Of a DNA stretch of 64,000 nt, positions 3,221 to 60,910 are shown one piece after another. A model generated the notes under the pieces. That model did not search any database and was not told where the DNA came from. It was given only the letters and a program-made list of their open reading frames with translations. Both the position numbers and the translations under genes were made by a program. Source of the stretch: Candidatus Latescibacterota bacterium (GTDB lineage: Bacteria > Latescibacterota > UBA2968 > GCA-2709665); NCBI GenBank assembly GCA_965222075.1, contig OZ244937.1, forward strand, positions 3,936,001 through 4,000,000. The letters run 5' to 3'. Within the stretch, counting starts at the first letter, position 1; every line of letters begins with the position of its first letter.

Positions 3221-3310
3221 AGGAATTTCCTCAATTCATTGAGAACCGCTCAAAAACAAGGTGCTCGTACAGAGATGCCGATCCCGCTTCATAGTGGTTC
3301 CGTAGCGTTC

Positions 3311-4123
3311 TTAATGCTGGTCCCGCCGGTCCATAACCTCCGTCGCCCGCAATTCGCGGATCAACTCAATCAGCCCCTCGATGGCCGCCTCTAAGAACTT
3401 CTCCCCTTTCTCTCTGCTGGCCTTCGTCGCATCCCCCATCACCCCGCTTGCCGTCTTCGTGCTCCAGTACGGGGTAAAACTCGCGCTTGACCCTTCCGGA
3501 TGCCCCCCCGCAAGCAGGTCGGACTGGAAGCTGTTCGAAAGGGGCGACCGTTCGTCCACCGCCTTGCTCATATCCACCAGATCCGGCTTCAAAGCCAGAT
3601 AGAGAGACGTCTCATACTCTCCCCCGTGCGATGTCCCCCCGTAATCCGACTCTCTCAGTTCCCTGCCCACCTCCTTCACCTTTCGAAGCCCCCAGTGGTT
3701 GACCGACCCACAAAGGATTTTTCCCTCATATTCGATAATCGATAACCGCGCCGCCAGGTCCAGCGGCGACGTATTGCTCCCGTGGCCGTTCACGACCAGA
3801 ATCCGCTTGAACCCGTGGTAGGCGAGGCTGCAGCAGACATCTTTGACGTATCTAATAAAGGTATCCCACGTAATCGTCAGCGTCCCGTGAAAATCCATGT
3901 GGTGCGGACTGTATCCGTGCGGCACCGGCGGGGCCAGAACCGCCTCGGATGGAATCCGCGCCACGGCCCGATCGCAGATCTCCGTACAGAGCACAACATC
4001 CGTATCCACCGGCAGGTGGGGCCCGTGGTCCTCGTAGGTCGCAACCGGAAGCACGGCGACCCGATCCTGCTCGGCCGCCTCCTTGATCTCGTACCAGATC
4101 ATCTCGGCGAAGCGGTGTTTCAT
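3311..4123 (-). CDS. creatininase / creatinine amidohydrolase family protein
   Basis: EDHGPHLPVDTD, NGHGSN, HGGEYETS; start at ATG 4123 after AAGGAG. Confidence 0.9.
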   Translation of the reverse strand: MKHRFAEMIWYEIKEAAEQDRVAVLPVATYEDHGPHLPVDTDVVLCTEICDRAVARIPSEAVLAPPVPHGYSPHHMDFHGTLTITWDTFIRYVKDVCCSLAYHGFKRILVVNGHGSNTSPLDLAARLSIIEYEGKILCGSVNHWGLRKVKEVGRELRESDYGGTSHGGEYETSLYLALKPDLVDMSKAVDERSPLSNSFQSDLLAGGHPEGSSASFTPYWSTKTASGVMGDATKASREKGEKFLEAAIEGLIELIRELRATEVMDRRDQH

Positions 4124-4177
4124 TTCAATCTCCTTTTCTAATTGTTCGCGGTGGTGGTTTGATCCGGACAAACCCCG

Positions 4178-4233
4178 CCTGCCTGTCCGACCTGCCGGCC
4201 GGCAAGGCAGGCCACCCGCTCTGCGGGTGGTCG
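4178..4233. repeat. nested palindromes: a 21-bp CCTGCC...GGCAGG element inside a CGACCACCCGC/GCGGGTGGTCG hairpin
   Basis: removing 4191-4211 leaves the perfect hairpin CGACCACCCGC-TCT-GCGGGTGGTCG; preceded by CCTGCCTG. Confidence 0.7.
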
Positions 4234-4298
4234 TTGATTGGGCTTTTCGGCTCCTTTCCATCACCCTGCATTCTCGGTTCGCTGTCGACGCCTCCCTC

Positions 4299-5051
4299 CT
4301 ATTGTGTCGCCCCAGATGAAAAGATCGGCTTCAAGATATCCACCGTCGCCCCAATCACATCCTGCCCCTTCATCATCTGGCATTTTGCCTCACCAATTCG
4401 TCCGCCAATCACCTGCCCACGTGCGCGCAGCGCCTCATCCATCCTATCAAAAGCCACCGTACTCCCCATCATCGACGTAAGCAGCACCTCGATTTCCCCA
4501 TGCTCGGGATGGTTCAAAATCACCCGCTTGGGATTCTCCGGACTCCAGTGTTTATGCCGGTCCGGATCGCCTGCATAATCCTCTCCGATATGGATGGTGG
4601 AATTCGCCTGATGGTCCACGCCCAGCAACAAAACCCAGCCCCCCCGCTTAGCCAGCCGGTCTACTGCGCAGTCCTTGCCCAGAGCCCCCCGTTCCAGATC
4701 GTCACATACCAGCGCCTCGGCATCCGGCCCGATCACCGTCACCGCATGGGTAGGATGCAGGCTGCGCACCGCCCCGGGAAACCGCCTCGCGGCCTCCGTG
4801 ATCGCCCCGTTCTTGGAGGGCGACTCCAGCGGATCGAAATACTCCGTCCTGCTGTGCGTAAACGTAGGCACCATAAGCGTCCCCTCCAGCCCCAGCACCT
4901 CCAGAAAGGCCTCGACCACTGCCGAAGCCCCGCCCTCCACATATCCCATACTGGAGAGAGAACTGTGAACCATCACCCCGTCCCCCTCTTCCAGCCCCAT
5001 TGCCCTCAGCCCGGCAGCGATATCCTGCCGGGTAACCGTCTTGGATACCAT
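4299..5051 (-). CDS. AAC(3)/YokD family N-acetyltransferase
   Basis: VMVHSSLSSMGYVEGG, GTLMVPTF, RSLHPTH, LLGVDHQANSTIH; start at ATG 5051 after GGAG. Confidence 0.85.
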   Translation of the reverse strand: MVSKTVTRQDIAAGLRAMGLEEGDGVMVHSSLSSMGYVEGGASAVVEAFLEVLGLEGTLMVPTFTHSRTEYFDPLESPSKNGAITEAARRFPGAVRSLHPTHAVTVIGPDAEALVCDDLERGALGKDCAVDRLAKRGGWVLLLGVDHQANSTIHIGEDYAGDPDRHKHWSPENPKRVILNHPEHGEIEVLLTSMMGSTVAFDRMDEALRARGQVIGGRIGEAKCQMMKGQDVIGATVDILKPIFSSGATQ

Positions 5052-5097
5052 ACCCGATCTCCAATCAACTCCAATCGCCCCAGCCGTGACTATTCTT

Positions 5098-6567
5098 TCA
5101 GATCTCTTCAAACGGATACAACGGCCGCCGCCGGTGCCGATACGTAAGACTTCGCATATCGGCCGTGGTAGACCCCGGCGAATTCACCCGGATCAACGCA
5201 TTGCACACAGGCCCATACGCCGCAACCGGCGCGTGTACCCCCTTGGCCACCAGAACCTGGAACGCCGCCGGGTCCAGATCACAACTGATCATCAGCCCCA
5301 GGCTCACCGGCACCACCCGGCGTGACGTCAGACTGAAACTCAGCCCGGAATCCGTCTCAACAACGGCGGTCGGCCCCATATCGAACGCCGTCATTCCTCC
5401 GTGCCGCACCTCCGGCTCCCGGAACCGCCCGTCGTGCAGGCTGCGCACCTTCACCATAGCCTCCAGGGGCGGACCGTGCAAATCGTCCGTCTTCCCACCC
5501 ATCCTGAGCGCAACCCGGGCGCCTACACCCGCGACCCTTGCCTGCTGAACCGACTCGGCATCGAGCAAACAGACAAACCCCCGAATCCCACTGCGCCGGT
5601 GCATTTCGTGGGCGATCAGGGTACCGTCCGCTGCCGATCCTCCGCCCACGTTGTCTCCCATATCCAGCAGACAAACCGGCCCCTCCACCCGAAGCGCCTG
5701 GTCGACCGCCTCGGCAATCCCTGTGAACTGCCCTACGAATTCCTCGCGGTGGTCGCACAAATACCCGGCCATCTCATCAACCATCTGCCTGGCCAGTTCC
5801 GGATCGTCGTCCGTCACCCCAATCAGCGCCGACCCCATCTCCCCAACATCGGCATAGGGAAACCCCAGCACAACGCTGTTGGACAGAACGCCTGGTCGCG
5901 ACAGCCATTCGTCTGCCAACTCGTACATCGGCAGACAGGGCGGAGCCGAGGTCAACTGCCGCTCGATATTAATCGCAATAGGGGGAAAGGCGGCCGCCTG
6001 CACGGGTTTGATCTCGCCCCGAAGCGTCCGGACCATAATCCGGGCGGCCTCGATCCCGCGCTGTTTCTGGTCTAAGTGCGGATTGGACCGGTACGCGATC
6101 GTCGCATCGCACGCCTCGATCATGCGGGGTGACAGGTTGGCATGCGGGTCAATCGTGCAGATAATCGGCACGTCGAATCCAACCGTCCGACGCAAACGTG
6201 TCAGCCAGTACCCGTCCAGATCTCGATAGTCACCCTCCCCCACGTTCGCCCCATGCGGAGCCACCAGCACACCGTCCAGCCTCCCGGCCTCTTCGAGATT
6301 TGAAAACATGATGCGCATCAACGCATCGCAGGCCGCGTCCGTAATCGTCCCTGACGGCGCGGTGGAGGCATAGAAGATCGGCACGGCCTCGACCCCGGCC
6401 TCGTCCAGCTCCTGGAAAAAGCCGCTCACCTCGTGGTGCCCCTCCGCAAAAGCCTCATAAACCTCCTGCCCGCTTAGCAGATAACTTGCCCGGAACATAT
6501 CCAGAACCGTCGGCGTGCTGATAAAGGTATTGGATTCATGGATCAGCGAGATAATCCCAACACGCAT
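5098..6567 (-). CDS. M81 family metallopeptidase (MlrC-like)
   Basis: HESNTF, APHGA, DPHAN, YRSNPHLD, DMGDNVGGGS. Confidence 0.9.
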   Translation of the reverse strand: MRVGIISLIHESNTFISTPTVLDMFRASYLLSGQEVYEAFAEGHHEVSGFFQELDEAGVEAVPIFYASTAPSGTITDAACDALMRIMFSNLEEAGRLDGVLVAPHGANVGEGDYRDLDGYWLTRLRRTVGFDVPIICTIDPHANLSPRMIEACDATIAYRSNPHLDQKQRGIEAARIMVRTLRGEIKPVQAAAFPPIAINIERQLTSAPPCLPMYELADEWLSRPGVLSNSVVLGFPYADVGEMGSALIGVTDDDPELARQMVDEMAGYLCDHREEFVGQFTGIAEAVDQALRVEGPVCLLDMGDNVGGGSAADGTLIAHEMHRRSGIRGFVCLLDAESVQQARVAGVGARVALRMGGKTDDLHGPPLEAMVKVRSLHDGRFREPEVRHGGMTAFDMGPTAVVETDSGLSFSLTSRRVVPVSLGLMISCDLDPAAFQVLVAKGVHAPVAAYGPVCNALIRVNSPGSTTADMRSLTYRHRRRPLYPFEEI

Positions 6568-15089: not shown

Positions 15090-16457
15090 TCACCTGATAC
15101 GGTTAAGCCCATTCAAAGCGGCAACCCGATAAGCCTCCGCCATCGTTGGATAATTGAACGTCGTATTGATAAAATACATCAATGAGTTGGCCTTGCCTTT
15201 TTGCGCCATAATCGCCTGGCCGATGTGAATAATCTCCGATGCTTCAGAACCGAAGCAGTGGATGCCGAGGAGTTCCAGCGTTCTACGGTGGAAAAGGAGC
15301 TTCAGCATCCCGGTCGTGCGCCCGGTAATCTGCGCCCGCGCCAGGTGCCGGAAGAACGCATGGCCGACTTCATAGGGCACCTTCTTCGTCGTAAGCTCCT
15401 GTTCCGTAAGCCCGACCGAGCTGATCTCGGGTATGGTATAAATACCGGTCGGGATATTTTCAACAAGGCGGTACTCGCATTTCCCAAAAACCAAGTGCGT
15501 GGCTGCAAACCGCCCCTGATCGTATGCGGCGCTGGCCAGGTTGGGGTACCCCACAACATCGCCCACCGCATAGATATGGCTCCGGGCCGTCTGATAGTCA
15601 CCGTTGATAACAATAGACCCCCGCTCGTCGGTCTTGATGCCGATGGTCTCCAGCCCCATGCGATCCGAATTCCCCGTCCTGCCCTGCGCCCACAGGAGGG
15701 TATCGGTGTGAATCTGTTTGTTGGACTTCAGGTAAAGCCGGACCCCGCGATCGTCCGCCTCGACCCTCTTGTACTCTTCGTCGTGTCGGATTATCACTCC
15801 ATGCTCGCGCAAGTGGTAACTTAAGGCATCGATGATCTCATCGTCTAAAAAGGTCAACAGCCGATCCCGGCTGTTGATCAGGTTGACCTTGATACGCAGC
15901 CCCCGGAAAATAGAAGCGTACTCGCAGCCCACCACCCCGGCCCCGTAGATCGTAATCGACCGCGGGTTTTCTGTGAGGCTCAAACCCGAATCGCTGTCCA
16001 CAATGCGCGGATGCGAAAAATCCACATCCGGGGGGTGGTACGGCCTGGAACCGGTTGCAATAATAAACCCGGAGGCGCTATATTGCTCTTTCGTACCCCC
16101 GGCCAGCTCGACTTCAACCGTATGCTCATCCAAAAAAACTGCGCGGCCGTGGATAACATCCACCAGATTGCGTTCGTAAAACCCCTGGCGCAAATCCACC
16201 TGTTTCCGGATAACGGACTCGGCCGATTGCAGCAGATCCTGATATTTGGCATCTCGATACCTGCCGGTATCCGCAAGCTGCTGGATGGCGTGTCTCAGGG
16301 CCTTGCTGGGAATCGTCCCCCGGTGCGTACAGTTACCGCCAACAGTGGGAAGATCGTCGATCACCGCAACCTGTCTCCCTTCCTTGGCCGCCTTCATCGC
16401 CGCTCCTTCCCCGCCAGGCCCACTCCCGATCACCATCACATCGTAATCGTGCTCCAT
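15090..16457 (-). CDS. sthA: soluble pyridine nucleotide transhydrogenase
   Basis: [44 protein letters not shown]. Confidence 0.95.
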
Positions 16458-16519
16458 AAGATTGATGATACCCTCGTCAACGTCCGTGTCTTTCCGCCTG
16501 CGCCTTCTGTTTGAGGATC

Positions 16520-16548
16520 AAAATATCTCTTGAAGACGCACCTGTCAA
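16520..16548 (-). promoter_or_regulatory. sigma70-type promoter for sthA
   Basis: TTGACA-17 bp-TATTTT. Confidence 0.6.
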
Positions 16549-16588
16549 ATTCTTTGTGGTAGCCTACTACGTAAAACCGAGTCAGCAC

Positions 16589-16627
16589 AAAAAAAACAGG
16601 TGCCGACCCTACCTTCAGATCGGCACC
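16589..16627 (-). terminator. intrinsic terminator after the cold-shock gene
   Basis: GGTGCCGATCT/AGGGTCGGCACC hairpin followed by a T8 tract. Confidence 0.75.
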
Positions 16628-16663
16628 CATAACAAGCCGAGAAAGTCTTCACAAAGAGAAAGA

Positions 16664-16876
16664 CTATACCTGTGCCTGCTGCTTGACGACATTGGCCGCC
16701 TGCAGCCCCTTGGGACCCTGCACGATGTCAAACTCGACATCTTCCCCTTCGGACAACGACTTAAATCCATCGCCCTGGATCGCGGAAAAGTGCACAAACA
16801 CATCTTCGCCGCCATCCTGCTCGATAAAGCCGTAGCCTTTCGCGTCGTTAAACCACTTCACTCTACCTACCGCCAA
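16664..16876 (-). CDS. cspA: cold-shock protein (CspA family)
   Basis: [34 protein letters not shown]. Confidence 0.95.
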
Positions 16877-17014
16877 CTGAATTCACCACCTTTCTGCCTT
16901 AAAATGGAGCGTTTAATAAAAATGGCAAGAACCGGAACCTCTGATCCTTGCCACATCGCCATTTTCGAGTTCGACTGCAAAGGAAACAGAAACCATATCC
17001 CTCTATTCACAGAA

Positions 17015-17043
17015 AAGATACTTTATTCTTTTTCAAAAGTCAA
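17015..17043 (-). promoter_or_regulatory. sigma70-type promoter for the cold-shock gene (~130 nt leader)
   Basis: TTGACT-17 bp-TATCTT. Confidence 0.6.
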
Positions 17044-17329
17044 TCATTTTTATGGTTCATGGAAGATTTCGGCGGGAAATCAATTGCGGTACTGCCATAA
17101 AGGGTGGCGCTGTCTCCGTTCGCAGACGTTCCAATATAGATTGAAAAGTCCACAAGATCAAAATCTTTCTCAATCTGGGCAGGACGCGCATGAGATCCTT
17201 AACTGTGACGCCTGTCCAAATTTTAGTAATTTTAATATAATTATCATTTATAGTTTGACACCATAACTATCAAATAAACATCAATATATGACTCCCGCTC
17301 CTCAACCGGAGTTTCCGGACAGAATCGAC

Positions 17330-17358
17330 TTGCCAGTTTGAGCTAAATGCCTTATATT
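17330..17358 (+). promoter_or_regulatory. sigma70-type promoter for the CBS-korAB operon
   Basis: TTGCCA-17 bp-TATATT. Confidence 0.55.
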
Positions 17359-17419
17359 TATTACCAATAGGGGAATATTCTAAGAATCGATAACCTACCT
17401 TGGTTGCAGAAAATTCACA

Positions 17420-17887
17420 ATGAGCCTCGAACAGGATCTCCAGGCCGAAATCGTCGGTCACCTGGATCTGTCCCTCTACCTCACCGTGGAGGACGGAACG
17501 CAGGTCAAAGATGTCTTGCAGCGCATGCGGGAACAGAGGCGCAACTGCGTGCTGGTCACAAATGGCGGACGCCTGGCCGGCATCTTCACCGAGCGCGACG
17601 TGCTGAGGAAGGTTGTCAATCACCCGGAGACCTGGGACGGTCCCGTGGTTATGGTGATGACCGCCATGCCCCATACCGTCCGGTCCGATGACCTGGTCGC
17701 CCAGGCAATCGACCTGATGAACTCGGGCCACTTCCGGAATATGCCGGTGGTGGACAGCGAAGGAAAGGTCACTGGTAACCTGACTCAGTACGCCATCATC
17801 CAATTTCTCTGCGACCACTTTCCGCAGGAAGTCTACAACCTGCCGCCCGATCCGGACCAGACGGCCAACGCCCGCGATGGGGCTTGA
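17420..17887 (+). CDS. CBS-domain (Bateman) protein
   Basis: LAGIFTERDVL and FRNMPVVD CBS pair. Confidence 0.85.
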   Translation: MSLEQDLQAEIVGHLDLSLYLTVEDGTQVKDVLQRMREQRRNCVLVTNGGRLAGIFTERDVLRKVVNHPETWDGPVVMVMTAMPHTVRSDDLVAQAIDLMNSGHFRNMPVVDSEGKVTGNLTQYAIIQFLCDHFPQEVYNLPPDPDQTANARDGA

Positions 17888-17961
17888 AGCGCAGGCAACC
17901 AGAAGCTGCGTCGGGCAAACATTTGAACAATTATGACCTCAAGACAGGAGGTTACGTAACA

Positions 17962-19845
17962 ATGGCCGAAGAAATGGTCGAAACAACGGTCGAAACAACG
18001 GTCGAAACAACGGTCCAGGAACTGGCGGAGCTGGAATCCGTAGCCGTCCGCTTTGCCGGAGATTCCGGCGATGGCAGTCAGCTGATCGGTGGTGAGTTCG
18101 CCAACACCTCTGCCATTGTCGGCAACGACATCAGCACCATGCCCGACTTTCCGGCGGAGATCCGCGCCCCTGCCGGCACCCTGCCCGGCGTCAGCGGGTT
18201 CCAGGTCCACATAGCCGGTGAAGACATCTACACCCCCGGCGACAACCCCCAGGTGCTGGTTGCCATGAATCCGGCCGCCCTGAAGGTCAACATAGACGAC
18301 ATGCCCCCCGGCGCCGTTATCGTTGTCAACAAAGACAACTTTACCAAGAACAACCTCCGCAAGGCCGGCTACACTACCAACCCCCTCGAAGACGGATCGC
18401 TGAAGGACTACCGGGTCTGTGAAGTCCCGCTGACAACCCTCCATAAAAACGCCATGGAGGGAGTTGAAGGTCTCACCAACCGCCAGATCGACATGATGAA
18501 AAACATGTTCGCCCTCGGGCTCAGCTACTGGATATTCGACCGGCCCCTGGAGCCTACGATCAGGATGCTGGAAAAGAAATTTATCAGCCGACCCGCCATC
18601 GTCGAGGGAAACGTTCGCACCCTGAAGGCCGGGTACCACTACGGGGAAACCACCGAAGAGTTTCAGCTTCGCTACCGGGTGCTCAAGGCCCCGGTCCTGC
18701 CCGGCACCTACCGGGCCGTAAACGGCGCCCAGGCAACGGCGATGGGCTTTGCCACTGCGGCCCATAAGGCAGGCAAGACCCTCTTCTACGGAAGCTACCC
18801 GATCACCCCGGCCAGCGCCATCTTAGAAGAACTGGCCGCCCTCAAAAACTTCGACGTGCGGACCTTTCAGGCGGAAGACGAGATCGCCGCGGTCGGCTCG
18901 GCAATCGGCGCAGCCTTCGGAGGCGCCTTTGCGGCAACCGGCACCAGCGGCCCGGGCGTGGCGCTTAAAAGCGAGGCAATCAACCTGGCCGTTGTGCTGG
19001 AACTGCCCCTGGTGATCGCCAACTACCAGCGGGGAGGCCCCAGCACCGGCCTGCCCACAAAGGTCGAGCAGTCCGACCTGCTCCAGTGCCTCTTCGGCCG
19101 CAACGGCGAAAGCCCCATCCCGATGGTCGCCGCTGCAACCCCGGCCGAATGCTTTGCCATGGCCATCGAGGCCTTCCGCATCGCCGTGGAGAGCATGACG
19201 CCGGTCTTCTTTATGGCCGACGGCTACTTGGTCACCAGTTCGGAGCCCTGGAAGATCCCGGACCCGGACGACATCCCACCGATTCAGGTTGAGTACCGCA
19301 CCGACCCGGAGGGCTTCCAGCCCTATCTCAGACATCCCGAAACCCTGTCACGGCCCTGGGCCCTGCCCGGCACCCCCGGCCTGGAGCACCGCATCGGCGG
19401 GCTGGGCAAACAGGACATCACCGGGAACGTCTCCTACGACCCTCAGGACCACGAGCACATCGTCAAATTGCGGGCGGACAAGATCGCCAGAATCGCCGAC
19501 CGCATCCCCCAACAGGAGGTGCTTGGGCCGCCCGACGGAGACCTGCTCGTCGTCGGCTGGGGCAGCACCTACGGCGCCATCCGCACGGCCGTGCGGATGG
19601 CCCAAGCCCGGGGCAGATCGGTCGCCAGCGCCCACCTGAGGTACCTCAACCCCTTCCCGAAGAACCTGGCTGATATCCTCTCGCGCTACAAGAAGATCCT
19701 GGTGCCCGAAATGAACATGGGCCAGCTTGCCCTGCTGCTTCAGGGCCGCTACCTGGTCCAGGTCACCTCCTATCCCAAAGTGCAGGGGCAGCCCTTTAAG
19801 ATCTCCGAGATCGCCCGTAAAATCGACGAGATGTTGGAAGCATAG
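17962..19845 (+). CDS. korA: 2-oxoacid:ferredoxin oxidoreductase alpha subunit (fused gamma-alpha)
   Basis: FAGDSGDG, YPITPAS, QAEDEIAA, TSGPG, QRGGPSTGLPTK; ATG 17962 after AGGAGG. Confidence 0.92.
   Translation: MAEEMVETTVETTVETTVQELAELESVAVRFAGDSGDGSQLIGGEFANTSAIVGNDISTMPDFPAEIRAPAGTLPGVSGFQVHIAGEDIYTPGDNPQVLVAMNPAALKVNIDDMPPGAVIVVNKDNFTKNNLRKAGYTTNPLEDGSLKDYRVCEVPLTTLHKNAMEGVEGLTNRQIDMMKNMFALGLSYWIFDRPLEPTIRMLEKKFISRPAIVEGNVRTLKAGYHYGETTEEFQLRYRVLKAPVLPGTYRAVNGAQATAMGFATAAHKAGKTLFYGSYPITPASAILEELAALKNFDVRTFQAEDEIAAVGSAIGAAFGGAFAATGTSGPGVALKSEAINLAVVLELPLVIANYQRGGPSTGLPTKVEQSDLLQCLFGRNGESPIPMVAAATPAECFAMAIEAFRIAVESMTPVFFMADGYLVTSSEPWKIPDPDDIPPIQVEYRTDPEGFQPYLRHPETLSRPWALPGTPGLEHRIGGLGKQDITGNVSYDPQDHEHIVKLRADKIARIADRIPQQEVLGPPDGDLLVVGWGSTYGAIRTAVRMAQARGRSVASAHLRYLNPFPKNLADILSRYKKILVPEMNMGQLALLLQGRYLVQVTSYPKVQGQPFKISEIARKIDEMLEA
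17976..18015 (+). repeat. 12-bp tandem repeat (3.3 copies) encoding VETT in the KorA N-terminus
   Basis: GGTCGAAACAAC x3 followed by GGTC. Confidence 0.9.
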
Positions 19846-51518: not shown

Positions 51519-52163
51519 TCAACCGCCTCCGGCCCATCGCACCCCCTGCTCGACCAACCGCTGCATCGCAGGCCTCCCAAACGTTCCCGGCCCATGCCCC
51601 AGCGTCGTATAAAACACGCGGCCACCGCCATAGGACTTCACCCAGGCCATCGGGTGCGTCCGGCCGTGCCACTCCGCCGAGGCCAGAATGTGGAGATAAG
51701 GATCGTATGCCGAAATATAGATCTCATCCTCCACTTCAAAATCCTCGATCCCCTGCGTCACCGGATGCTCGGCCTCCTCAATATGCACCGTAAAAGACAG
51801 CCCCGGCGGATGCCAGTTCGCGTGACCCCCAAGAAGGTTCACCGCTCGCCCGCCAATCCACCACCCCGTCCCGTGAATGCCCACCAACCCCTTCCCGCCC
51901 CTGACGAATTGAAACAACCCCTCCTCCTGCTCCGGCATTAGATCCGGCTCCCGCTTCACCGACCCATCCCCCTGGGGGACCGCCCGGGTGAATCCCGTCC
52001 CGAACACGCACACGTCAAATCCGTCCAACTCGGACGACGCCAAAATCGTCTTGTCTTCCGTCAGCGTCCCTGAAAGGTCGCTCTGTGCCGTGAGAAAACC
52101 GCAAATCACCTCCGCGCTCTCCTCAAACCCGTGGTTTCTGCCGGACAGTATCAAAACGTTCAT
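51519..52163 (-). CDS. ThuA-domain protein
   Basis: GKGLVGIH, HPVTQG...DEIY, PMAWVKSYGGGRVFYTTLGH. Confidence 0.88.
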   Translation of the reverse strand: MNVLILSGRNHGFEESAEVICGFLTAQSDLSGTLTEDKTILASSELDGFDVCVFGTGFTRAVPQGDGSVKREPDLMPEQEEGLFQFVRGGKGLVGIHGTGWWIGGRAVNLLGGHANWHPPGLSFTVHIEEAEHPVTQGIEDFEVEDEIYISAYDPYLHILASAEWHGRTHPMAWVKSYGGGRVFYTTLGHGPGTFGRPAMQRLVEQGVRWAGGG

Positions 52164-52234
52164 CGTAACGCCCCCTTTTCCGTTTTCTTGACCCCTTCCT
52201 GGGTTTTCTCCCCATCCCGGACGATTGGCTCACG

Positions 52235-52268
52235 CCTGCCTGCCGAGCATCCATCCGGCGCAGGCAGG
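52235..52268. repeat. CCTGCCTG-N18-CAGGCAGG palindromic element
   Basis: perfect 8-bp terminal inverted repeat, 34 bp, intergenic. Confidence 0.8.
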
Positions 52269-52309
52269 TCTCCGGGTGGTCTGTCGTGTGTGGTCTAACA
52301 GCCTCTCAC

Positions 52310-53074
52310 TCAAATCAACCCCCACAACCGCCTCCGCTCCTCGCTCCACCCCTCCCACTCCCCGGCAAAAACGTGCTTCACCGCCTCAAGGTCCCGCTTG
52401 CGCCCCCCCGGTGGAAAATAATTCCAGCCCATTGCCCGCCGGGGCCCCGCAGCCGTCTTCACCCCCGTCGCATGCCAGCAGCTTGGCGTCCACACCAGCG
52501 ACCAGCGGGGGTCCAGCACCACCTCCACCTCGTGCGGATGCCGTGCGAACATCATCCTGGGCGGACGATCGTGCTGTCCGGTCGCCAACTCCAGCTGCCG
52601 CAACTCTTCTTCCACCTCTGCTTCGGGCCTCAGATGGCTCCCCGGTAGAACCCGCAGCGGCGCATTCGTCGGATCGTGCCGGTCCAGCGCCGTCCGTATC
52701 GATACCTGCTTTACCTCAGGGCTCCCGTCTGCGTGCCAGTGCACCTGGCGCTGGGGCCGTCCGTCCTCTGCAATCGTCCCGGAGGCGTCCCCCAGCCCGC
52801 AGGCCCCGATATGCACTTCGTCACAGTCCAGAATACGCCTGGCCGCATCCACCAGATCCGGCTGTTCGATAAGCTGCAAAACCGGTTCACCAACCATAAA
52901 CAGCTGGCAGGCCAGCCGGTTCAACCCTTCAGGCCAGTCCGTCTGCTCCCACTGCGCTTCGATCTCGCGCTGAATCGAGTCGACCTGATGCATCTTTTCC
53001 TCGCCCAGCGGATTGGGAACCAGAAAAAACCCCTGCCGGTGAAAGTGTTCAATCTGTTCGTTCGTTATGTCCAT
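52310..53074 (-). CDS. phytanoyl-CoA dioxygenase (PhyH) family protein
   Basis: FHRQGFFLV, WHAD, LRVLPGSH, WHA. Confidence 0.85.
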   Translation of the reverse strand: MDITNEQIEHFHRQGFFLVPNPLGEEKMHQVDSIQREIEAQWEQTDWPEGLNRLACQLFMVGEPVLQLIEQPDLVDAARRILDCDEVHIGACGLGDASGTIAEDGRPQRQVHWHADGSPEVKQVSIRTALDRHDPTNAPLRVLPGSHLRPEAEVEEELRQLELATGQHDRPPRMMFARHPHEVEVVLDPRWSLVWTPSCWHATGVKTAAGPRRAMGWNYFPPGGRKRDLEAVKHVFAGEWEGWSEERRRLWGLI

Positions 53075-53189
53075 TCGTCCCCCAGGGAAAGCATGGCTGA
53101 ATTTTTTTGGAGTTAAACCTAAAGAGACAGTTTCACGTGAGCAGATCTCTCTAACAGCAACTTCTCAGTATTTAATACAGCACGGGCTG

Positions 53190-54329
53190 TCAATCTGTCT
53201 GCACCAGCCGCCCTGCCCTCACGGTAGCCAGCGGCTCCCAGCATCCCCCCGGCCGTTCGACGTCCCGCACATCGCGCAAGCGTCCCTCCTCGTTCCAGTG
53301 CAACACGGCCAGATCGGCACAGGCGCCGGCGGCCAGCGTGCCGGCCTCCCCCTTCAGCCCAAGCAGCTCCGCCGGCCGTGCGGTAGCACGCGCCAGGACT
53401 TCGGTTTCCGGCATGCCGGCGGCGATGAACTTCGATATCGTCCTCGGCAGATCGTGCGGCGGGTCGCTGCCGATATGGCGGTTGTACTGATCGGTGGAAA
53501 CGGTGTGGGGGTAAAACCCCTCGGCGATGGCGGGCTCGGCGTGGGCAAAGCTGAAGGACTGCATGCCGTTACAGCCGTCGAACAGAACCCCCCGCTCTTT
53601 CGCCTCCCAGACTGCTCGCCGGACCTTTCCGTCGGCGATGATGTTGTCTTCGAGGAAAGCGAAGGTGTAGGTGACGAGGTCGCCCGCCCGCAAATGGAGC
53701 AGCTGCTCCTCCAGGGGGAAGTCCCTGTTGAACCGCGGACCGTACAGGATGGGACGCCCGCTACGCTCGGCCGCTTCGATCCCCCGACGCATGATCTCTC
53801 TCGGGTCGTGGGTGACGGCCGGATTGTGCATGGTGTTGAACGCGATGCCCCAGATCTCCTCTCCAGCTGCAGCGATCGTGGCGACGCAGAGACCGACGTC
53901 GGCGTTTTCGAGGTGCTCGAAACAGTGGCCCGCCTGCGATTCGCCGTATTTCGACAGGTGCAGGGCCAGTCGCACCCGGGTGCGGCAGGCGTGGATGACC
54001 TCGTCGTGATAGGCCGGCCAGTTGAGGGCGCCGGCGTCCCCCTGCGACATGCAGGTGGTAACCCCGCGCGGCAGGAAGTGCTCGTCCGGATTGACGCCGT
54101 ACCGCGAACCGCCTCTGGCCGGGTGAGCGTGCATGTCGACCAGACCGGGGAGAAGCAGGGCGTCGGGGTAGTCCAGGCTCTGCGATGCGGTCCCTGAGAC
54201 GTCGGGGCCGGCGGCGGCGATGCGGTCACCGCACACGGCGACGGCGCCCGGGCCATCCAGGCCGGTCTCGGCGCAGAAGATGCGACCGGCCGAAATCAGC
54301 AGATCATACGAGTCGGTTGTCCCGGACAT
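53190..54329 (-). CDS. amidohydrolase/deacetylase family metallohydrolase (dihydroorotase-like)
   Basis: PGLVDMHAH, GVTT, GDAG, VSTD, TARPAELLG, GACADL. Confidence 0.85.
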   Translation of the reverse strand: MSGTTDSYDLLISAGRIFCAETGLDGPGAVAVCGDRIAAAGPDVSGTASQSLDYPDALLLPGLVDMHAHPARGGSRYGVNPDEHFLPRGVTTCMSQGDAGALNWPAYHDEVIHACRTRVRLALHLSKYGESQAGHCFEHLENADVGLCVATIAAAGEEIWGIAFNTMHNPAVTHDPREIMRRGIEAAERSGRPILYGPRFNRDFPLEEQLLHLRAGDLVTYTFAFLEDNIIADGKVRRAVWEAKERGVLFDGCNGMQSFSFAHAEPAIAEGFYPHTVSTDQYNRHIGSDPPHDLPRTISKFIAAGMPETEVLARATARPAELLGLKGEAGTLAAGACADLAVLHWNEEGRLRDVRDVERPGGCWEPLATVRAGRLVQTD

Positions 54330-54341
54330 GGATCGTTCCTC

Positions 54342-54357
54342 ATTCGTGGCCCCGCCA
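54342..54357 (+). repeat. left copy of a 16-bp direct repeat (att-like)
   Basis: ATTCGTGGCCCCGCCA, identical to 56082-56097. Confidence 0.7.
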
Positions 54358-54394
54358 AGCTCGACGGCACCGACACGGCCGCGACCTCACAATC

Positions 54395-55421
54395 TCAAGA
54401 AGAAAGCTCTACGTTAGATGGCCTACTCTTGCCCTCGCAAAAATACATCGCCTTGAACCGTTCCATTTGTTTGATTTTGTCGATCAGCACGCGTTCCTGC
54501 TGTGAACTCGCCACATTTCGAACCAGGGACCTGGCATCCACCTCGGTCAATCGCAAAACGAGATAGTTGGCGATGGCCGAAAACACCGAGACGTGGAAGT
54601 CCCGCGCCTCTTGCGAGGCGAGCACCAGCGAGATGCCGTATTTCCGGCACTCCTTGGCCATGGTAGGAATGAGTTTGAGGCCAGCACCTCTCCCGCCTCC
54701 CGGCTGCCCTCATCGTCCCGTCCCGCGAACAAAACAGACAGGCTCGCGCACAACGAGTACACATCGGAGCGACGATCCGCTGCCCCGAGTCCTTGGGCAC
54801 GCACTTCGGGAGCAATCGCATTGTCTCCTTCGTCTTCTGCACTGCTGGAGACCGCCACCGTAATATCGTCGGGAATCCGGGCGTGTTGGAAACCAGTCAG
54901 GATCGGTTCGTTGTCGTGCTTGACGAGAACCGTGCCCGGCGTGAGGTTCCGGTGCAGCATGGGTTCGCCATCCTCGCCCGCTTCTGCCACGCTTTCAATG
55001 TGTGGAACCGAACGCCGCGGACAGCCCGGCCCTCAAGCAGCTTGACTTTCGCGGCATCCTGCGTGACCAGGAATACCCCATCCACCCGACCGAGTTCCGA
55101 GATAATCCGGCGCAATGTGGTACCAACCTTGCGTGCCTTGTCCGTTAGGCACTCGGCCTCGCGCTCCACAAGTTCGGCGTTGCGCTTCACCCAAGCCGCG
55201 GTCCAGTGCTTGACCTCAATGACCCGCACCCCGGGCGGGCCGATGGCGACAATGTCGATTTCGTCGGATTGTCGTCGGTGGGTGGCGGAAAACACGAGAT
55301 TTGTCAACAGCAGCCACTCGCCATCGCCCAATTCGGAAATCAAGCCCGACTTAAGCCGCCCAATGGCCTTCTGTTCGCTGTCGTTGGCCACAGGCCCGCA
55401 GTTAATGAGGGTTACCTTCAT
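54395..55421 (-). pseudogene. collapsed NERD nuclease - Ser/Thr kinase - HerA/FtsK-like ATPase gene
   Basis: NERD segment (EIDIVAIGPPGVRVIEVKHW) shifts frame at ~54980 to a kinase segment (HRNLTP..APE..SDVYSL), then at ~54680 to an ATPase tail (AKECRKYGISLVLASQ). Confidence 0.75.
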
Positions 55422-55455
55422 GCAGAGTTACCTTTCTCCCCTAAGGTTTTGGGAC

Positions 55456-55580
55456 TCATGCGCTCCAAGGCGGGGTGACGATCTCATACTTGGGACCGCT
55501 GACACGGCTGAGTCTTCTGTCCAACGTCAGCAGTGAACAGTTGCACTCCTCAGCCCCAATGCTACGTACCAAGCATCGTA
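55456..55580 (-). pseudogene. VapC/PIN toxin C-terminal relic
   Basis: YDAWYVAL, frameshift, AEECNCSLLTLDRRLSRVSGP; 5' part replaced by the IS relic. Confidence 0.7.
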
Positions 55581-55731
55581 ACCCGAGGCGATCGACGCAC
55601 AATGGAAAGTAGCGCCTTTTTTGCCTGTGACGCGTCTGGATACTCAGGGGGAAAAAGCGGGTTTACGTCCCCGCCCAGATCGAATCTGTAACCCTGAGAT
55701 CCCTTCGGCCTGGTAACGATTTACCCACTCA

Positions 55732-55769
55732 CCTGCCTGTGCGTGCGGGGGCACGCACGCAGATTCAGG
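55732..55769. repeat. 38-bp CCTG...CAGG palindromic element inserted in the transposase
   Basis: CCTGCCTGTGCGTGCGGGGGCACGCACGCAGATTCAGG; its removal restores codon TAT. Confidence 0.8.
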
Positions 55770-55815
55770 TATATCGTGTCTTTACGTCGCTTTTTTAATA
55801 ATCCCCTTTGGGCTA

Positions 55816-55848
55816 CCTGCCTGCGCCAAGCGGAGCGCGGCAGGCAGG
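55816..55848. repeat. 33-bp CCTGCCTG-N17-CAGGCAGG element inserted in frame in the transposase
   Basis: adds ACLPRSAWRRQ between SGRQ and VAQRG. Confidence 0.85.
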
Positions 55849-56081
55849 CCTGACGGCCTGACATCCCAGAAGCAATCTTTAAAATCGCACAGGCACGTTC
55901 ACGCATATACGGCTTGTCCGAATGGTCGCGGGCCTGTTCCACTTCGCTGCTTTGCTCTGCTGTCAACGAAATCCTCAGTATTTTAGGCATCAGATCACCT
56001 CCTTATACTGAGGATACAACATCTGAACGCTTATAGCACGATTATTTTTTTAATCTTCATAAGGCCGGGGCTTTTCTCCCG

Positions 56082-56097
56082 ATTCGTGGCCCCGCCA
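56082..56097 (+). repeat. right copy of the 16-bp direct repeat (att-like)
   Basis: ATTCGTGGCCCCGCCA, identical to 54342-54357. Confidence 0.7.
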
Positions 56098-56250
56098 CCG
56101 CGATTTCCAAAGCCCTGCACCACCCGCATTCATTCCCGTCCACAGGACGGGGCATTATGCGAGATATTCGTAAAAATATACGACTGCTTGACTGAGAAAC
56201 CAACCGTTTTCAATACCACAGGAGAAACACCTACCAGGCCTCGCCCGTCT

Positions 56251-56360
56251 GAGAAGCTGTTTTAAAATTCCCGGTGAGTTCCCCAGCGTGAGGGGCGCGC
56301 AGCGCAGGCAAGCGTTTTTGCAGCCGCGCGAAGACCGCTGGGGGTTTTAAGACAGTTGTC
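56251..56360. mobile_element. ~110-bp MITE-like element with imperfect terminal inverted repeats
   Basis: AGCTGTTTTAAAATTCCC / GGGGTTTTAAGACAGTT; left end repeated at 22406-22440. Confidence 0.6.
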
Positions 56361-56519
56361 CTGCGCCCTTTGGGGCACCCATTATGATGAAAATAGTTGC
56401 GTTGACAGACTTGTACTGTAACCGTCCATGCCCGCTCACACGTTTCGCCTCTGCGATCCCCCTCCCCACCGGCCAGGTATCGACCACTGCGGGTTGGCGC
56501 CCCTAACTTGCCGACTCCC

Positions 56520-56750
56520 CCGGTCTGGTGCGGGGGGAAGGGGCTTTTCCGCGCAGATCCCCCCAGCACCATCGCCCAACAACGCCCAAAAGGTCCGCTG
56601 GGCACAAACGCCTGCTTCCACCACAGGGGCAGTTCGCGGAAAAGCAGCCCCCGCGGCGTCTGAGCGGCCTGCCTGCAGCGCGGTGCGCCGCGCAGGCAGG
56701 CGCCCTTCTTTTTCGGCCTTTTTCTTGGGCGAACAAGAAAAAGGCCAGGA
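56520..56750. other. highly structured non-coding element
   Basis: GCTTTTCCGCG/CGCGGAAAAGC long-range stem; perfect 13-bp hairpin GGCCTTTTTCTTG-GGCGAA-CAAGAAAAAGGCC. Confidence 0.55.
56668..56700. repeat. 33-bp CCTGCCTG-N17-CAGGCAGG palindromic element
   Basis: perfect 8-bp terminal inverted repeat; interrupts the hairpin GGCGTC-TGAGC-GGCGCC. Confidence 0.8.
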
Positions 56751-56795
56751 GTAAAAGAACAGTTGGACCTGGGTATCTGTTATTTTCCAAGCAGT

Positions 56796-56945
56796 TTCTA
56801 AAAGACGTTCTACAGGACTACCCCGGAATAGATGGCCGATGTTCGGGAGGTGGCGCTGCAGATCAGAGAGGACCACGGGATCAAGCTGGCCGGGTGGTAG
56901 TATACGGATATTGGTCTGCTCAACGCTGTGTTTGAAGAAGGGGCG
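56796..56945 (+). pseudogene. possible lysyl-tRNA synthetase internal fragment
   Basis: LKDVLQDYPGID, frameshift, ADVREVALQIREDHGIKLAGW*YTDIGLLNAVFEE loosely resembles the class II LysRS insertion region. Confidence 0.3.
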
Positions 56946-56971
56946 TTTGACCTTGCGCGGGGAAAAACTTC

Positions 56972-57000
56972 TTGACTGTTTCCACAAGATGTAGTATTAT
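56972..57000 (+). promoter_or_regulatory. sigma70-type promoter for smc
   Basis: TTGACT-17 bp-TATTAT. Confidence 0.65.
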
Positions 57001-57198
57001 ACAAAAGATCCTGTGAAATGTTTGCGCAACCTGTTGCGTTTTAAAGATTTTCCTCTGGGATCCCCTTCCCCTTCTTTTCCCCTCGATTCAGACCGGAGGT
57101 ATCTGTGGGTAAGCGCCTGGCAACCATCCAGGCGTTCCACAGGGCCAAATTTCCACACATTTGTACGTCTCTCCATCATGATTTCAGGAGGATTTCTC

Positions 57199-60100
57199 TT
57201 GCACCTTTCTCGCCTTACGGCCTTCGGTTTCAAGTCGTTTGCCCAGAAGATGGATCTGACGTTTGGGAAGGGGATTTCCTGCGTGGTGGGTCCCAACGGC
57301 TGCGGGAAGTCGAATGTGGTGGATGCGCTTCGCTGGGCGCTGGGCGAACAGCGGGTGCGGTCGCTGCGCAGCCATTACATGGAAGATGTGATCTTTTCCG
57401 GGTCGAGGACGCGCAAGGCCTTAGGGATGGCCGAGGTGTCGGTGACGATCGACAATTCCGAGAACCTGCTCCCGGTGGATTTTTCCGAGGTGACGGTGAC
57501 CCGCCGGCTGTTCCGGTCTGGGGAGAGCGATTATCTGCTGAACAAGATCCCCTGCCGGTTGAAGGACATCCAGGACCTTTTCATGGATACGGGGCTGGGC
57601 GCTTCGCACGCCTATATCATCGAGCAGGGGATGGTGGACGAGATCATCAGCGACAAGACGGAGGAGCGGCGGCGGGTTTTTGAAGAGGCCGCGGGGGTGA
57701 CCCGGTACAAGGTGCGACGCAGGTCGGCCTGGAACAAGCTGCAGTCGCTTCAACAGGATTTGCAGCGGATTTCGGATGTGATCGCGGAGGTGGAGCGGCA
57801 GGTGGCGTTGCTGGCGAGGCAGGAGCGGAAGGCCCGGCTTTTCAAGCAGCTGACAGACCAGCTCCGGGAGATGGAGGTCCAGCTTGCGCGCTACCGGTAT
57901 TTTGAGATGTCGGACCGCGCCCGGCCGATGTTAGAGGAGATGACCTTTCTCAAGGAGGATGTTGAGGTCGGGTCAACAGATATCGTCCGGTTGGAGGCGA
58001 GGCTGGAAGAGGTCCGTGCCGAACTCACGGCGCAGGACCAGGCCGTGGCCACGGCCAACGCGGAGGTGGGCCGGCAGGTGGAGGCGGCTCACCGGAAGGA
58101 CCGGGAGATCGTAGTGGCCCGGGAGGAGGCGCGGGGTATTGAAGGGTTATTGACCCGTGCCGCAAGGCAACAGGAGGTGTTGAAGGAGCGGCAGGAGGTG
58201 GCCCGGCAGGGGCAGGAGGCGGCCCGGCAGGGAGAACAGGAGGGGAGCGAGGCTCTTAAGCGGGCAGAGGCGGCGCTTTTAGAAGAGACCGGGACGCAGG
58301 AGGCCCTGCTGGCGGACTTGGAGGCCCGCCGTGGGGGGGCGGATGAGCAGAAGGCGCGCCTTATTGGGATGCACCAGGAGATCAGCGAGGTGCGCGGGCG
58401 GCTGGAGCGGGCGCGGGCGGAGGTGGAGGGGTTGTCTCACCGGCAGGCGAGGCTGGGGGAGGATGTGGCCCGCGTTCGGGCGCGGCGGCAGGAGGCGGAG
58501 GGGGCGGCCGATGCGGCGGCAGGGCAGATCGCAGACCTGGAGCAGGCGCTGGAGGAGCGGACTTCCCTGAGGCGGGTGCACACCGAGGCGCGGGACCGGC
58601 TGCAGGCGGAGCGGGACGGGCTGGTGGAGGAGCGCAATAGCCTGCGCACCCGGATGGAGGCGGACGGCGCCCGGTTGGCGCTTTTAGAGAAGCTCCGCGA
58701 GGGATTTGAGGGCTATTCCCGGGGGGTACGAACGCTGGCCGTAGACTCTCCCTTTTCGGATCGGATCAAGGGGGTTGTGGCGGATCTGATCGATGTGGAT
58801 CCGATGTACACTTCGGCGATCGAGGCGACGATGGGACGGGCGCTGGAGTGCCTGCTGGTGGACACGACCGCGGATGCGGCGGAGGCGATGGCCTATCTGC
58901 GGTCCAGCGCGCACGGCGCGGCGGCGTTTCTGCCTACAGAGCGGGTGGCGCAGGGCAACGGCATGCCCTGGACGCCTCCGGTGGGGGAGGGGATTGTGGG
59001 CCGGGCGTCGGATCTGCTCCGGGGGCCTGCAAACGGCGCGGCGCGGTCCCTCTTGTGCCGGACGCTGGTGGTGGCGGATGTGGAGGCCGCGCTGCCTTTA
59101 ATGGCGCAGATGCAGACGATCGGGGTGGATATTGCGACGCTGGACGGGGAGGTGCTCGCCGCCGATGGCACGGTCTACGGCGGGGTTGCTGTGGGCGAGG
59201 AGACCGGGTTGATCGGCCGGGCGGGGCAGGTCGAGATGCTCTGGGCCGATCTGGAGGCGGGCCGGGCGGGGCTGGAGGCCTTTGGGGCGGATATCTGTCG
59301 GGTTGGGGAAGCCACAGCCAAAGCAGCGGCGCAGGTTGAAGCCGATGACGGGGCCCTGGCTGACTTGCGCAACCGCCTGGTCGGGCTGCAGCGAGACCAG
59401 CAGAACGCGAGCGCCGAGGCCAAACGGCAGGGGGCCGCCGATGAGGAGTTGCACGGGGAGGCGGCCTGGCTGAAGGAGCGGGAAGCCGAGCTTCGCTGCA
59501 CGGTTGCAGAGGGAGAAGCAGGGCTGGAGGCCCTGGAGGCCCGGCGCAGCCGGCTGGAAGAAGAGGTCCGGCAGGCGGACGAGGCGCTCCGGGAACAGGA
59601 ACGCAAGCGCCGGGCGCAGCAGGATGCGGTTTCTGCGCAGCAGGTGGAGATCGCTACGTTGGGGGAACGCGTTGAGAACCTGCACCAGGAGGCGGCCCGG
59701 CTGGCGCAGGCGCAGACCGACCTGGGCCGGGAGATGGAGCGGCTGGCTTTGGAGTGCGCCGAGAATGAGGCGCGAAAGGCCGACCTGGGAGAGGTGGTGC
59801 AGTCCGCTTCGACGGAGTTGGAGGCCCTCCACAAGGTGCAGACCGAGTTGGAGCGAAAGCGGGATACGCAGGTGGAGCGCCAGCAGGAGCTGATGGTGGG
59901 GGCCCGCGAGCTGGAGGAGAAGGACCGGGAGGTGGGGAGGCGGGTGATTCGGAACCGGGAGCGGCTGCGCGAACTGGAGGTGGAGATGGTGCAGCTGAAG
60001 ACCCGTGCGGAGGAGCTGCAGGAGCGGATCAAGCGCGACCATGAGGTGGATATCAAGGAACTGGGACGGTTTGAGGACCCGGAGTTCAACGCCGATATTA

Positions 60101-60876: not shown

Positions 60877-60910
60877 CTGCCTGCTTGCCGACAAGGCAGG
60901 CGCAGGCAGG
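60877..60910. repeat. composite CCTG...CAGG element (21-bp unit plus extra CAGGCAGG end)
   Basis: CCTGCTTGCCGACAAGGCAGG at 60880-60900 resembles 4191-4211; followed by CGCAGGCAGG. Confidence 0.7.

Follow-up and report, generated by a model that had tools for sequence, protein, structure and literature searches.

What are the two short hairpins that interrupt a single transposase gene, and how did they come to lie there? The gene is found in a stretch of 64,000 nucleotides of Candidatus Latescibacterota bacterium (GenBank assembly GCA_965222075.1, contig OZ244937.1, positions 3,936,001 to 4,000,000), hereafter the window, in which an insertion sequence (IS) of the IS630 family carries two segments, of 33 and 38 bp, that begin with CCTG and end with CAGG. 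The initial annotation of this DNA took both for insertions, one in frame and one causing a frameshift, and proposed that such elements preferentially target and inactivate mobile DNA, acting as hyperparasites or as a host mechanism that silences IS elements. We compared filled and empty alleles in three settings: in this IS, at gene sites of the window's genome (G000; one contig, 5.36 Mb, 59% G+C) and of a genome of the same genus (G001), and among paralogous repeat copies within G000. Both segments are exact insertions that belong to a large family of very short hairpins. The account that we favour, with reserve, is that this IS copy was hit by two members of the family and that the crowding of such hairpins in IS elements results mainly from neutrality and hitch-hiking.

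Two exact insertions in an IS630-family relic

The interrupted gene is the first open reading frame (ORF) of the transposase, which encodes a winged helix-turn-helix (HTH) domain. In the ORF list it lies on the minus strand at 55644..55990, from the ATG at 55990 to the TGA at 55646-55644, and spans 347 bp. The 33-bp element (55816..55848; the hairpins carry no strand assignment) belongs to the subfamily that we call type A; its ends are CCTGCCTGC...GCAGGCAGG, and it adds 11 in-frame codons after codon 47 of the ORF. The 38-bp element (55732..55769), of type B, corresponds to a canonical form of 36 bp with two extra T's at 55764-55765. Without these 71 bp, 276 bp remain, i.e., 91 codons and a stop, and the coordinates and the arithmetic of the initial annotation were correct. 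Two copies of the same IS in G001, with identities of 82% and 79%, match over spans that are exactly 71 bp shorter, and the three-way alignment shows clean gaps of exactly 33 and 38 columns amid otherwise near-identity. Both copies encode an uninterrupted ORF of 91 amino acids (aa), with HTH_29 as its Pfam match. The alignment to intact copies, which had been proposed as a check, thus confirms that the segments are insertions and that the removal of both restores the frame. At the 33-bp site, the empty allele itself ends in CAGG, so that the junction is ambiguous by 4 nt; at the 38-bp site, the gap is unambiguous and there is no target duplication relative to either G001 copy.

Many of the 139 distant protein matches pair residues 1-74 of the query with residues 1-63 of the subject, i.e., without the 11 inserted residues. 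In tblastn comparisons, all four homologs show the gap at the first hairpin, and in three of them (P0017, P0004 and P0097) the match resumes in another frame after the second hairpin; the match to P0012 stops before it. The interrupted ORF of the window matched no Pfam family at E <= 0.01, because both hairpins fall in the HTH region. A 33-mer identical to the element at 55816-55848 is present in each of G009, G012 and G027, and 36-bp relatives of the 38-mer are present elsewhere in G000.

The two T's at 55764-55765 are absent from the contigs of three public runs (X1, X4 and X14, the last an RNA library; runs were compared as contigs only), which have the canonical 36-bp form. It follows that a change of 2 bp at a later time, in the genome or in the assembly, and not the insertion itself, probably caused the frameshift. 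The 38-mer was probably a canonical in-frame element of 36 bp that was altered later, and both elements most probably preserved the frame on arrival (11 and 12 codons). Thus, the claim that one insert is in frame stands, and the frameshift ascribed to the other is probably not a result of its insertion. A 508-nt contig from the RNA library runs across both hairpins and no contig skips either, a weak indication given that DNA carry-over is possible. Empty alleles at the two sites were not seen in the contigs of four runs, contigs being a record of presence and not of absence. A search of positions 52000-57200 of the window against Rfam (E <= 5) gave no match that overlaps the two hairpins; its four matches are all far below gathering scores, and a weak one to BjrC68 (14.8 bits, E 3.6) spans 56668-56700.

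The similarity to the G001 copy on contig C45 covers positions 28-520 of the query (window:55400-56100, minus strand) and ends just past the start of the second frame, which leaves in the window a truncated 5' fragment of the IS (55581..56073, minus strand) that lacks the DDE domain. The copy in G001:C45 continues for 295 aa with a DDE_3 domain; its N-terminal HTH (HTH_29, E 4e-8) and catalytic domain (DDE_3, E 2e-17) together bear out the assignment to the IS630 family. The window copy retains only the interrupted HTH part, and a second copy of this IS was not found in G000. The IS of the window is a relic, truncated and single-copy. Since DDE_3 is missing, the hairpins are not the sole reason for its death; it is dead chiefly through truncation, though both hairpins also break the winged HTH domain. 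Inactivation by frameshift, as initially proposed, is not supported for this copy: both elements have, or once had, lengths that are multiples of three (3n).

The first ORF closes at the same CCC_TGA in all three IS copies (window 55644-55652, minus strand; L004 in G001:C45; L010 in G001:C73). In the window, the transposase continues in the +1 frame (55562..55648, minus strand) after CCC_TGA (55649-55644), up to a stop at 55564-55562. The distant homologs P0004 and P0017 are continuous across this junction, which suggests either a site of programmed +1 frameshifting or an arrangement in two ORFs.

A hairpin family with lengths in multiples of three

The family to which both elements belong has the ends CCTGCCTG...CAGRCAGG. 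The pattern C[CT]TG[CT]CTG, 3-26 bases, CAG[AG]CA[AG]G has 259 matches in G000 versus 7 with the ends swapped, and 218 non-overlapping matches in its 5.36 Mb fold as stable hairpins; the arm of the family is the commonest hairpin arm of the genome. In the window, the looser pattern CCTG...CAGG has 81 matches versus 37.9 expected, a number that none of 100 shuffles reached. Type A (101 copies) has symmetric ends and is mostly 33 bp long, type B (82 copies) ends in CAGACAGG and is 27-36 bp long, and there are smaller subfamilies, including a bare 19-bp form. The inner stem, in which both arms show changes, is variable and has a bulge of 2-3 nt.

The elements of G000 range from 19 to 42 bp in size, and lengths of 27, 30, 33 and 36 bp account for 176 of the 218 copies. 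Counting all multiples of three, the length is 3n in 181 copies (83%) and in 83 of the 105 distinct sequences (p = 1e-21). As a control, we used the hairpins of the GTAG family of the same genome, which show no such bias (3n in only 53 of 181). The 3n lengths indicate that the elements can persist in frame inside genes.

Blunt insertion between a purine and a pyrimidine

In every clean pair of filled and empty alleles, the element is an exact addition, without target duplication and without loss of target bases. Six gene sites of G000 were compared with G001: four are exactly empty there, the fifth lies in a divergent stretch from which the element is absent too, and the sixth has no ortholog pair. 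The junction separates a purine from a pyrimidine, both of which the empty allele already has (R^Y), position -1 being a purine in 202 and position +1 a pyrimidine in 187 of the 218 elements. The flanks show only this preference, with a weak GC-rich context, and not the fixed tetra- or pentanucleotide target of the IS200/IS605 type. As to orientation in the replichores, where single-strand transposition of that type would leave a bias, type A shows none (leading strand in 43 of 86 copies), and that of type B is marginal (30 of 79, p = 0.04).

Elements also nest in the loops of other elements (at 998202, 611297, 3208656, 863848, 3156170 and 1823859). In a UvrA-like gene, a 33-mer lies within a 27-mer, and the 60 bp that they form together are missing from the G001 ortholog. 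Neighboring elements are separated by less than 200 bp in 24 of 217 cases versus 1.8 expected. It should be noted that the two hits within 120 bp, which had been singled out as a striking density, are real, and that such close spacing is typical of the family.

Three identical 27-bp elements lie about 155 bp apart at G000:C1:1139014-1139359, a spacing that implies that the element sits within a tandemly repeated unit. At two places in G000 (554272-554383 and 5024005-5024056) and their orthologous places in G001 (L201 and L209), the two genomes have elements that are not the same, which may reflect local hot spots or replacements.

Ordinary genes as hosts

According to gene calls from a crude home-made model, 95 copies lie wholly in predicted coding sequences (CDS), 5 partly, and 118 outside. 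Unique CDS contain 78 of the 218 copies, and repair and regulator genes are among them. The hosts identified with Pfam include a UvrA-like ABC ATPase, a UvrD-like helicase, two activators of the NtrC type (sigma-54), an outer-membrane beta-barrel protein and transposases. The length is 3n in 84 of the 95 copies within CDS and in 51 of the 56 copies in well-scoring unique genes. Along the latter genes, the counts by decile are 14, 5, 2, 4, 4, 5, 8, 4, 1 and 9, so that both protein ends are favored. The G001 orthologs of the UvrA-like and UvrD-like genes lack the inserts of 60, 36 and 36 bp, which are thus in-frame additions of the kind known from the palindromic elements of Rickettsia. None of the five in-gene elements of G000 that have an alignable G001 ortholog is present in G001.

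Crowding in IS elements

Transposases were mapped with five Pfam families, a partial map of 22 loci besides the IS locus of the window, which was left out. An IS locus was taken to extend to 800 bp from a transposase domain, and duplicates were collapsed. The IS loci contain 22 events in 44.4 kb, i.e., 495 per Mb; unique intergenic DNA has 122.8 per Mb (Poisson P = 8e-8). Of 20 merged loci, 11 are hit, whereas 2000 random sets centred on intergenic DNA had 2.05 hit loci on average and never more than 8. Among spacers, the density is 126 per Mb in convergent, 86 in tandem and 152 in divergent ones. As a function of the distance from the transposase domain, it is 539 per Mb in the domain, 810 at 1-400 bp, 375 at 401-800 bp, 208 at 0.8-2 kb and 33-52 beyond 2 kb. 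Thus, IS bodies hold about four times as many elements per Mb as any spacer class does; this excess is real and local, and it disappears beyond 2 kb. Equal density in all non-essential DNA, which the initial annotation had equated with tolerance rather than targeting, is not what we found, and the preference for mobile DNA that it suggested is borne out as a matter of distribution; these counts do not separate targeting from tolerance combined with hitch-hiking. Specificity for IS elements is not supported: the nearest transposase domain is over 800 bp away for 190 of 216 elements (~88%), of which many lie in genes of housekeeping type. A host function in silencing IS elements is likewise not supported.

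When all repeated DNA was used as a proxy for mobile DNA, there was no excess over intergenic DNA (111.5 versus 133.8 per Mb, p = 0.37), this proxy being diluted by paralogous gene families. The GTAG family, with 3 copies in IS loci versus 25 in intergenic DNA, is too sparse to discriminate as a control of IS enrichment.

Some of the copies in repeated DNA were inherited with their carriers. In a repeat that resembles a miniature inverted-repeat transposable element (MITE), the same 33-mer occupies the same site in at least 9 copies, including the type-A member at 56668..56700 of the window, and at least 25 paralogous copies are empty there. Contigs that skip exactly the 33 bp of 56668-56700 occur at high depth in runs X1, X2 and X4. 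Paralogous transposase copies likewise have insertions in common. These shared insertions show that the elements multiply together with their carriers (hitch-hiking).

The copy of the MITE-like repeat in the window extends over about 56218-56778 and includes a GGCCTTTTTCTTG hairpin; there are some 40-48 copies genome-wide, with a read depth of up to ~300x that of the flanks, and in some copies hairpins of the family occupy two fixed sites.

Candidate enzymes

A candidate for the mobilizing enzyme near the elements was not found among 3758 clustered ORFs from 129 foreign loci; only related phages and type I restriction-modification (RM) genes emerged, as hosts. Nor does any pair of orphan ends 300-6000 bp apart in G000 enclose a gene, as a parent IS with the termini of the family would. 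The Pfam family Y1_Tnp detects only two IS200-type loci in G000, neither of which is flanked by the family. A divergent gene resembling a REP-associated tyrosine transposase (RAYT; REP, repetitive extragenic palindrome) was missed by Y1_Tnp (E <= 0.001) and found with a protein query. This RAYT-like gene (G000:C1:3241528-3242975), which has the HUH motif and YxxNP, lies between two direct copies of a segment of ~110 bp with two GTAG-tagged hairpins, and the locus is a REPtron-like unit of a different REP family.

A second RAYT-like gene (G000:C1:1858519-1859420), apparently duplicated or fragmented, is directly upstream of an hsdR-like gene and has hairpins of the type GTAG-GGGCAACC in frame between its HUH and Tyr motifs. 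Large ORFs of 1200-1440 aa with an embedded domain that is 43-46% identical to the RAYT-like protein occur at L211 (G028, 2353-6015), at L212 (G029, 15978-19685) and in G002, G003 and G170:C12, with a free-standing RAYT-like gene ~10-15 kb away. By sequence, they resemble a DNA methylase of defence islands and may be defence genes. The loci of these large frames contain 0 and 2 elements of the family.

Weighing the explanations

The crowding in IS elements could mean that the insertion machinery prefers IS DNA, e.g., the single strands or hairpins exposed in transposition or sequence that is rich in palindromes, in which case the hairpins would be hyperparasites of mobile elements and would disable their carriers as a side effect. 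We regard such targeting as a possible but doubtful explanation. It would account for 495 elements per Mb in IS loci versus 86-152 in each spacer class, and for a density of 539-810 per Mb within 400 bp of the domain that falls to background beyond 2 kb. Hits inside the transposase ORFs of three unrelated families (DDE_3, DDE_Tnp_1 and UPF0236) fit as well, as do a DDE_Tnp_1 IS family of which several copies have different insertions at different sites, and the liking for hairpin loops that is apparent from nested insertions. However, the R^Y target occurs everywhere, 9 of the 20 merged IS loci have no element, and the GTAG control is too sparse to help. The tendency to 3n lengths in frame suggests that the elements live in ordinary genes, and both insertions described here probably preserved the frame. 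Moreover, ~88% of the copies are elsewhere, dead IS copies are the most neutral DNA of a compact genome, and multiplication with the carrier inflates the counts; together, these points argue against a targeting or silencing reading. The reverse order of events, in which IS copies landed beside or within hairpins that were already there, appears very improbable. REPs are reported as targets of IS elements (PMC1525189), and the density peaks at a distance (1-400 bp from the domain match) that takes in the edges of IS elements; yet here, and wherever paralogous empty sites are available, the hairpins are inside the IS or transposase ORF, and uninterrupted IS sequence exists elsewhere.

The hairpins might also be ordinary REP elements moved by a tyrosine transposase of the RAYT type (HUH, Y1) that acts on single-stranded hairpins, which we consider unlikely. 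Size, copy number, bulged hairpin and lack of target duplication all fit, and REPs within uvrA, uvrD and similar genes are documented in passages of PMC3733652. Of 21 family relatives, 17 have RAYT-like genes, among them 12 of 12 genomes of family f1 with at least 12 elements (these genomes are kin and not independent), close orthologs of one RAYT are confined to six element-rich genomes, and all five carriers from other phyla have such genes. Such genes are, however, common anyway; 6 of 10 element-poor relatives have the gene, and G015, with ~72 elements, has no RAYT-like match. On either side of the RAYT-like gene of G000 lies a GTAG-tagged REP instead of CCTG hairpins, and a CCTG element adjoins a RAYT-like gene in only 1 of 9 loci of relatives and in 0 of 13 loci in other phyla. 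The CCTG hairpins also lack the GTAG or CGTC tag and a replichore bias (type A 43/86, type B 30/79).

The explanation that we prefer, and hold to be probable if only modestly so, is that a type A element of 33 bp and a type B element of 36 bp landed in the part of an IS630-family copy that encodes the winged HTH, the copy now being a truncated relic, and that the second element gained 2 bp after its insertion. The moving form would be either a folded single strand or terminal repeats reduced to a minimal pair, and the enzyme would presumably be supplied in trans. Their crowding in IS elements would stem mainly from the full neutrality of dead IS copies and from amplification by hitch-hiking, perhaps with some true target preference, and selection on copies within coding DNA may have given rise to the 3n lengths.

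Several observations weigh against this explanation. If tolerance alone were responsible, at least 75% of spacer insertions would have to be purged, even from convergent spacers (126 versus 495 per Mb), a strong demand that leaves room for real targeting. Clustered events are not independent, with 7 at one locus, and neither are related genomes; moreover, the gene calls are crude and the transposase map is limited to its five families. The length bias is weaker when counted by subfamily, 3n being the modal length in just 11 of 18 (p = 0.02); of 81 pairs of length variants from one and the same subfamily, no more than 23 are separated by a multiple of three. In other genomes, elements other than the seed are 3n in only 17 of 27 cases, and the rule fails in the whole genomes of one Lewinellaceae and one Bacteroidales MAG, where 20, 26, 28 and 32 bp are common; the 3n rule is lineage-specific. 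The compensatory changes in the stems could have arisen from template switching inside the hairpin rather than from selection. Finally, no enzyme linked to the family was found, so that its mode of movement is one that we infer.

Spread across genomes and phages

Counts in 41 relatives range from 0 to ~230, with 0-1 matches to the reversed-pattern control in all of them; in this count, G001 has 17 elements and G000 has 186. In the phylum as a whole, type A hardly occurs outside family f1: it is present in 15 of 21 f1 genomes versus 6 of 146 others. A 34-bp member just downstream of a gene in the window (52235..52268) is present at the orthologous place in G001 (L206), exactly shared by the two genomes, which shows that the family predates their split.

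A scan of named genomes yielded at least 113 stretches in many phyla, with the canonical bulged hairpin in most of the matches listed. Records of Candidatus Latescibacterota, which may be the window's own kin, were not counted as independent. Five whole genomes of other groups, two of them from cultured isolates, have about 48, 11, 25, 28 and 52 copies, and the control has 0. The pattern was also found in 16 viral contigs, ~10 of them with the canonical form, the elements being in frame in long ORFs, and in each of two phage groups the element is inherited at the same site. Seven foreign loci have type I RM genes in common, and in five of them the element is in frame inside hsdR or hsdM, at several positions. 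Riding in often-transferred DNA is a plausible route between phyla.

The type I RM hosts are in metagenome-assembled genomes of different phyla (hsdR in L084, L103 and L079; hsdM in L083 and L053). In two hsdR genes, the element is at the same position and the inner stems differ.

A bolder proposal, which we put forward tentatively and think rather improbable, is that the hairpins of 19-42 bp, with tandem CCTG/CAGG ends as their sole defining trait, are a pan-bacterial minimal mobile DNA, moved by an enzyme that itself travels horizontally, inserting bluntly at R^Y without duplication and living as hyperparasites of the mobilome. They would settle by preference in IS elements, MITEs, phages and RM genes and travel with them, and in some lineages codon-sized lengths would have evolved that let them live in host genes too.

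Comparison with known systems

The systems closest in appearance are REPs and REPINs with their RAYT transposases, i.e., palindromes tagged with GTAG or CGTC (Di Nocera et al. 2013, PMC3733652; Bertels & Rainey 2011, PMC3116915). Passages of PMC3733652 report intragenic REPs, notably in uvrA, in the gene of a UvrD/REP helicase and in other repair genes, with O. terrae, a PVC bacterium, as the richest genome, and CGTC REPs without a dedicated transposase. REPs and the CCTG family are alike as imperfect palindromes of 20-40 bp in tens to hundreds of copies, patchy among relatives and mostly outside genes, and the CGTC REPs share with the CCTG family the lack of a dedicated transposase. Unlike REPs, the CCTG family has the same tandem tetranucleotide at both ends (CCTG CCTG ... 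CAGG CAGG) and no GTAG or CGTC tag, and its members are not the repeats that flank RAYT-like genes, as in a REPtron. Its members nest in each other, apparently rather than forming inverted doublets, its lengths are quantised in threes in this lineage, and its termini recur across many phyla.

The Rickettsia palindromic elements (RPE; Ogata et al. 2000, 2002, as presented in passages of the review PMC10969869) are selfish palindromes that lie in frame in unrelated coding genes. As there described, an in-frame palindromic insert adds a peptide that the protein tolerates, as in the CCTG family; RPEs are, however, ~100-150 bp long and known from one genus, whereas the CCTG family is 19-42 bp long, adds 9-13 residues and occurs in many phyla. 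MITEs resemble the family in being non-autonomous, and its two arms can be read as a bare pair of terminal inverted repeats; unlike MITEs, it has neither a target-site duplication nor a parent IS in G000, and its size is far below the usual 70-300 bp. Mobile GC clusters of yeast mitochondria are very short, GC-rich, hairpin-forming DNA without an enzyme of their own and occur also within genes. They differ from the CCTG family in being organellar, in AT-rich genomes, and in making a short target duplication. The small dispersed repeats of cyanobacteria, described by Elhai and colleagues in 2008, are reportedly mobile, shorter than 30 bp, in some cases hairpins, nested in other repeats and without a known enzyme; they differ from the CCTG family in sequence family and host range.

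A full-text search of open-access papers with both terminal 9-mers, supplements being outside its scope, gave no description of the family among the papers listed, all of which concern primers or human sequence; lists of intragenic REPs in the supplements of PMC3733652 might include it under another register. The family differs from the nearest known systems in its tandem ends, in having no tag and no link to RAYT, in its nesting, codon-sized lengths and cross-phylum termini, and in its excess in IS elements.

If the family moves by an enzyme of its own, few mobile units known from bacteria would be as small as its members, and their blunt, duplication-free mode of insertion would be unusual. 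With their excess in IS bodies, the hairpins offer a concrete example, open to testing, of selfish DNA that lives on other selfish DNA. Repair, regulator and RM proteins in many phyla are lengthened by 9-13 residues where a copy lies in frame, a point of relevance both to annotation and to the evolution of proteins. The hairpins can make intact genes look frameshifted or pseudogenes look intact, and they break short-read assemblies, in which contigs end at them.

Other features of the window

Two further stretches in the window resemble the family: a 34-bp member with a degenerate right end at 4178..4211 (3940178-3940211 in the genome), and a 31-bp stretch with the ends of the family, identified as a pattern match, at 60880..60910, a short way downstream of smc. 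A stretch of ~50 bp that adjoins the IS fragment on its upstream side (56061-56110) recurs elsewhere in G000, at 2769667, 4657378 and 636579. Directly after the IS relic follows an ORF on the minus strand (54897-55421) that matches the nuclease-related domain NERD (E 1.5e-9); the ORF, of small size and low score, may be a fragment as well.

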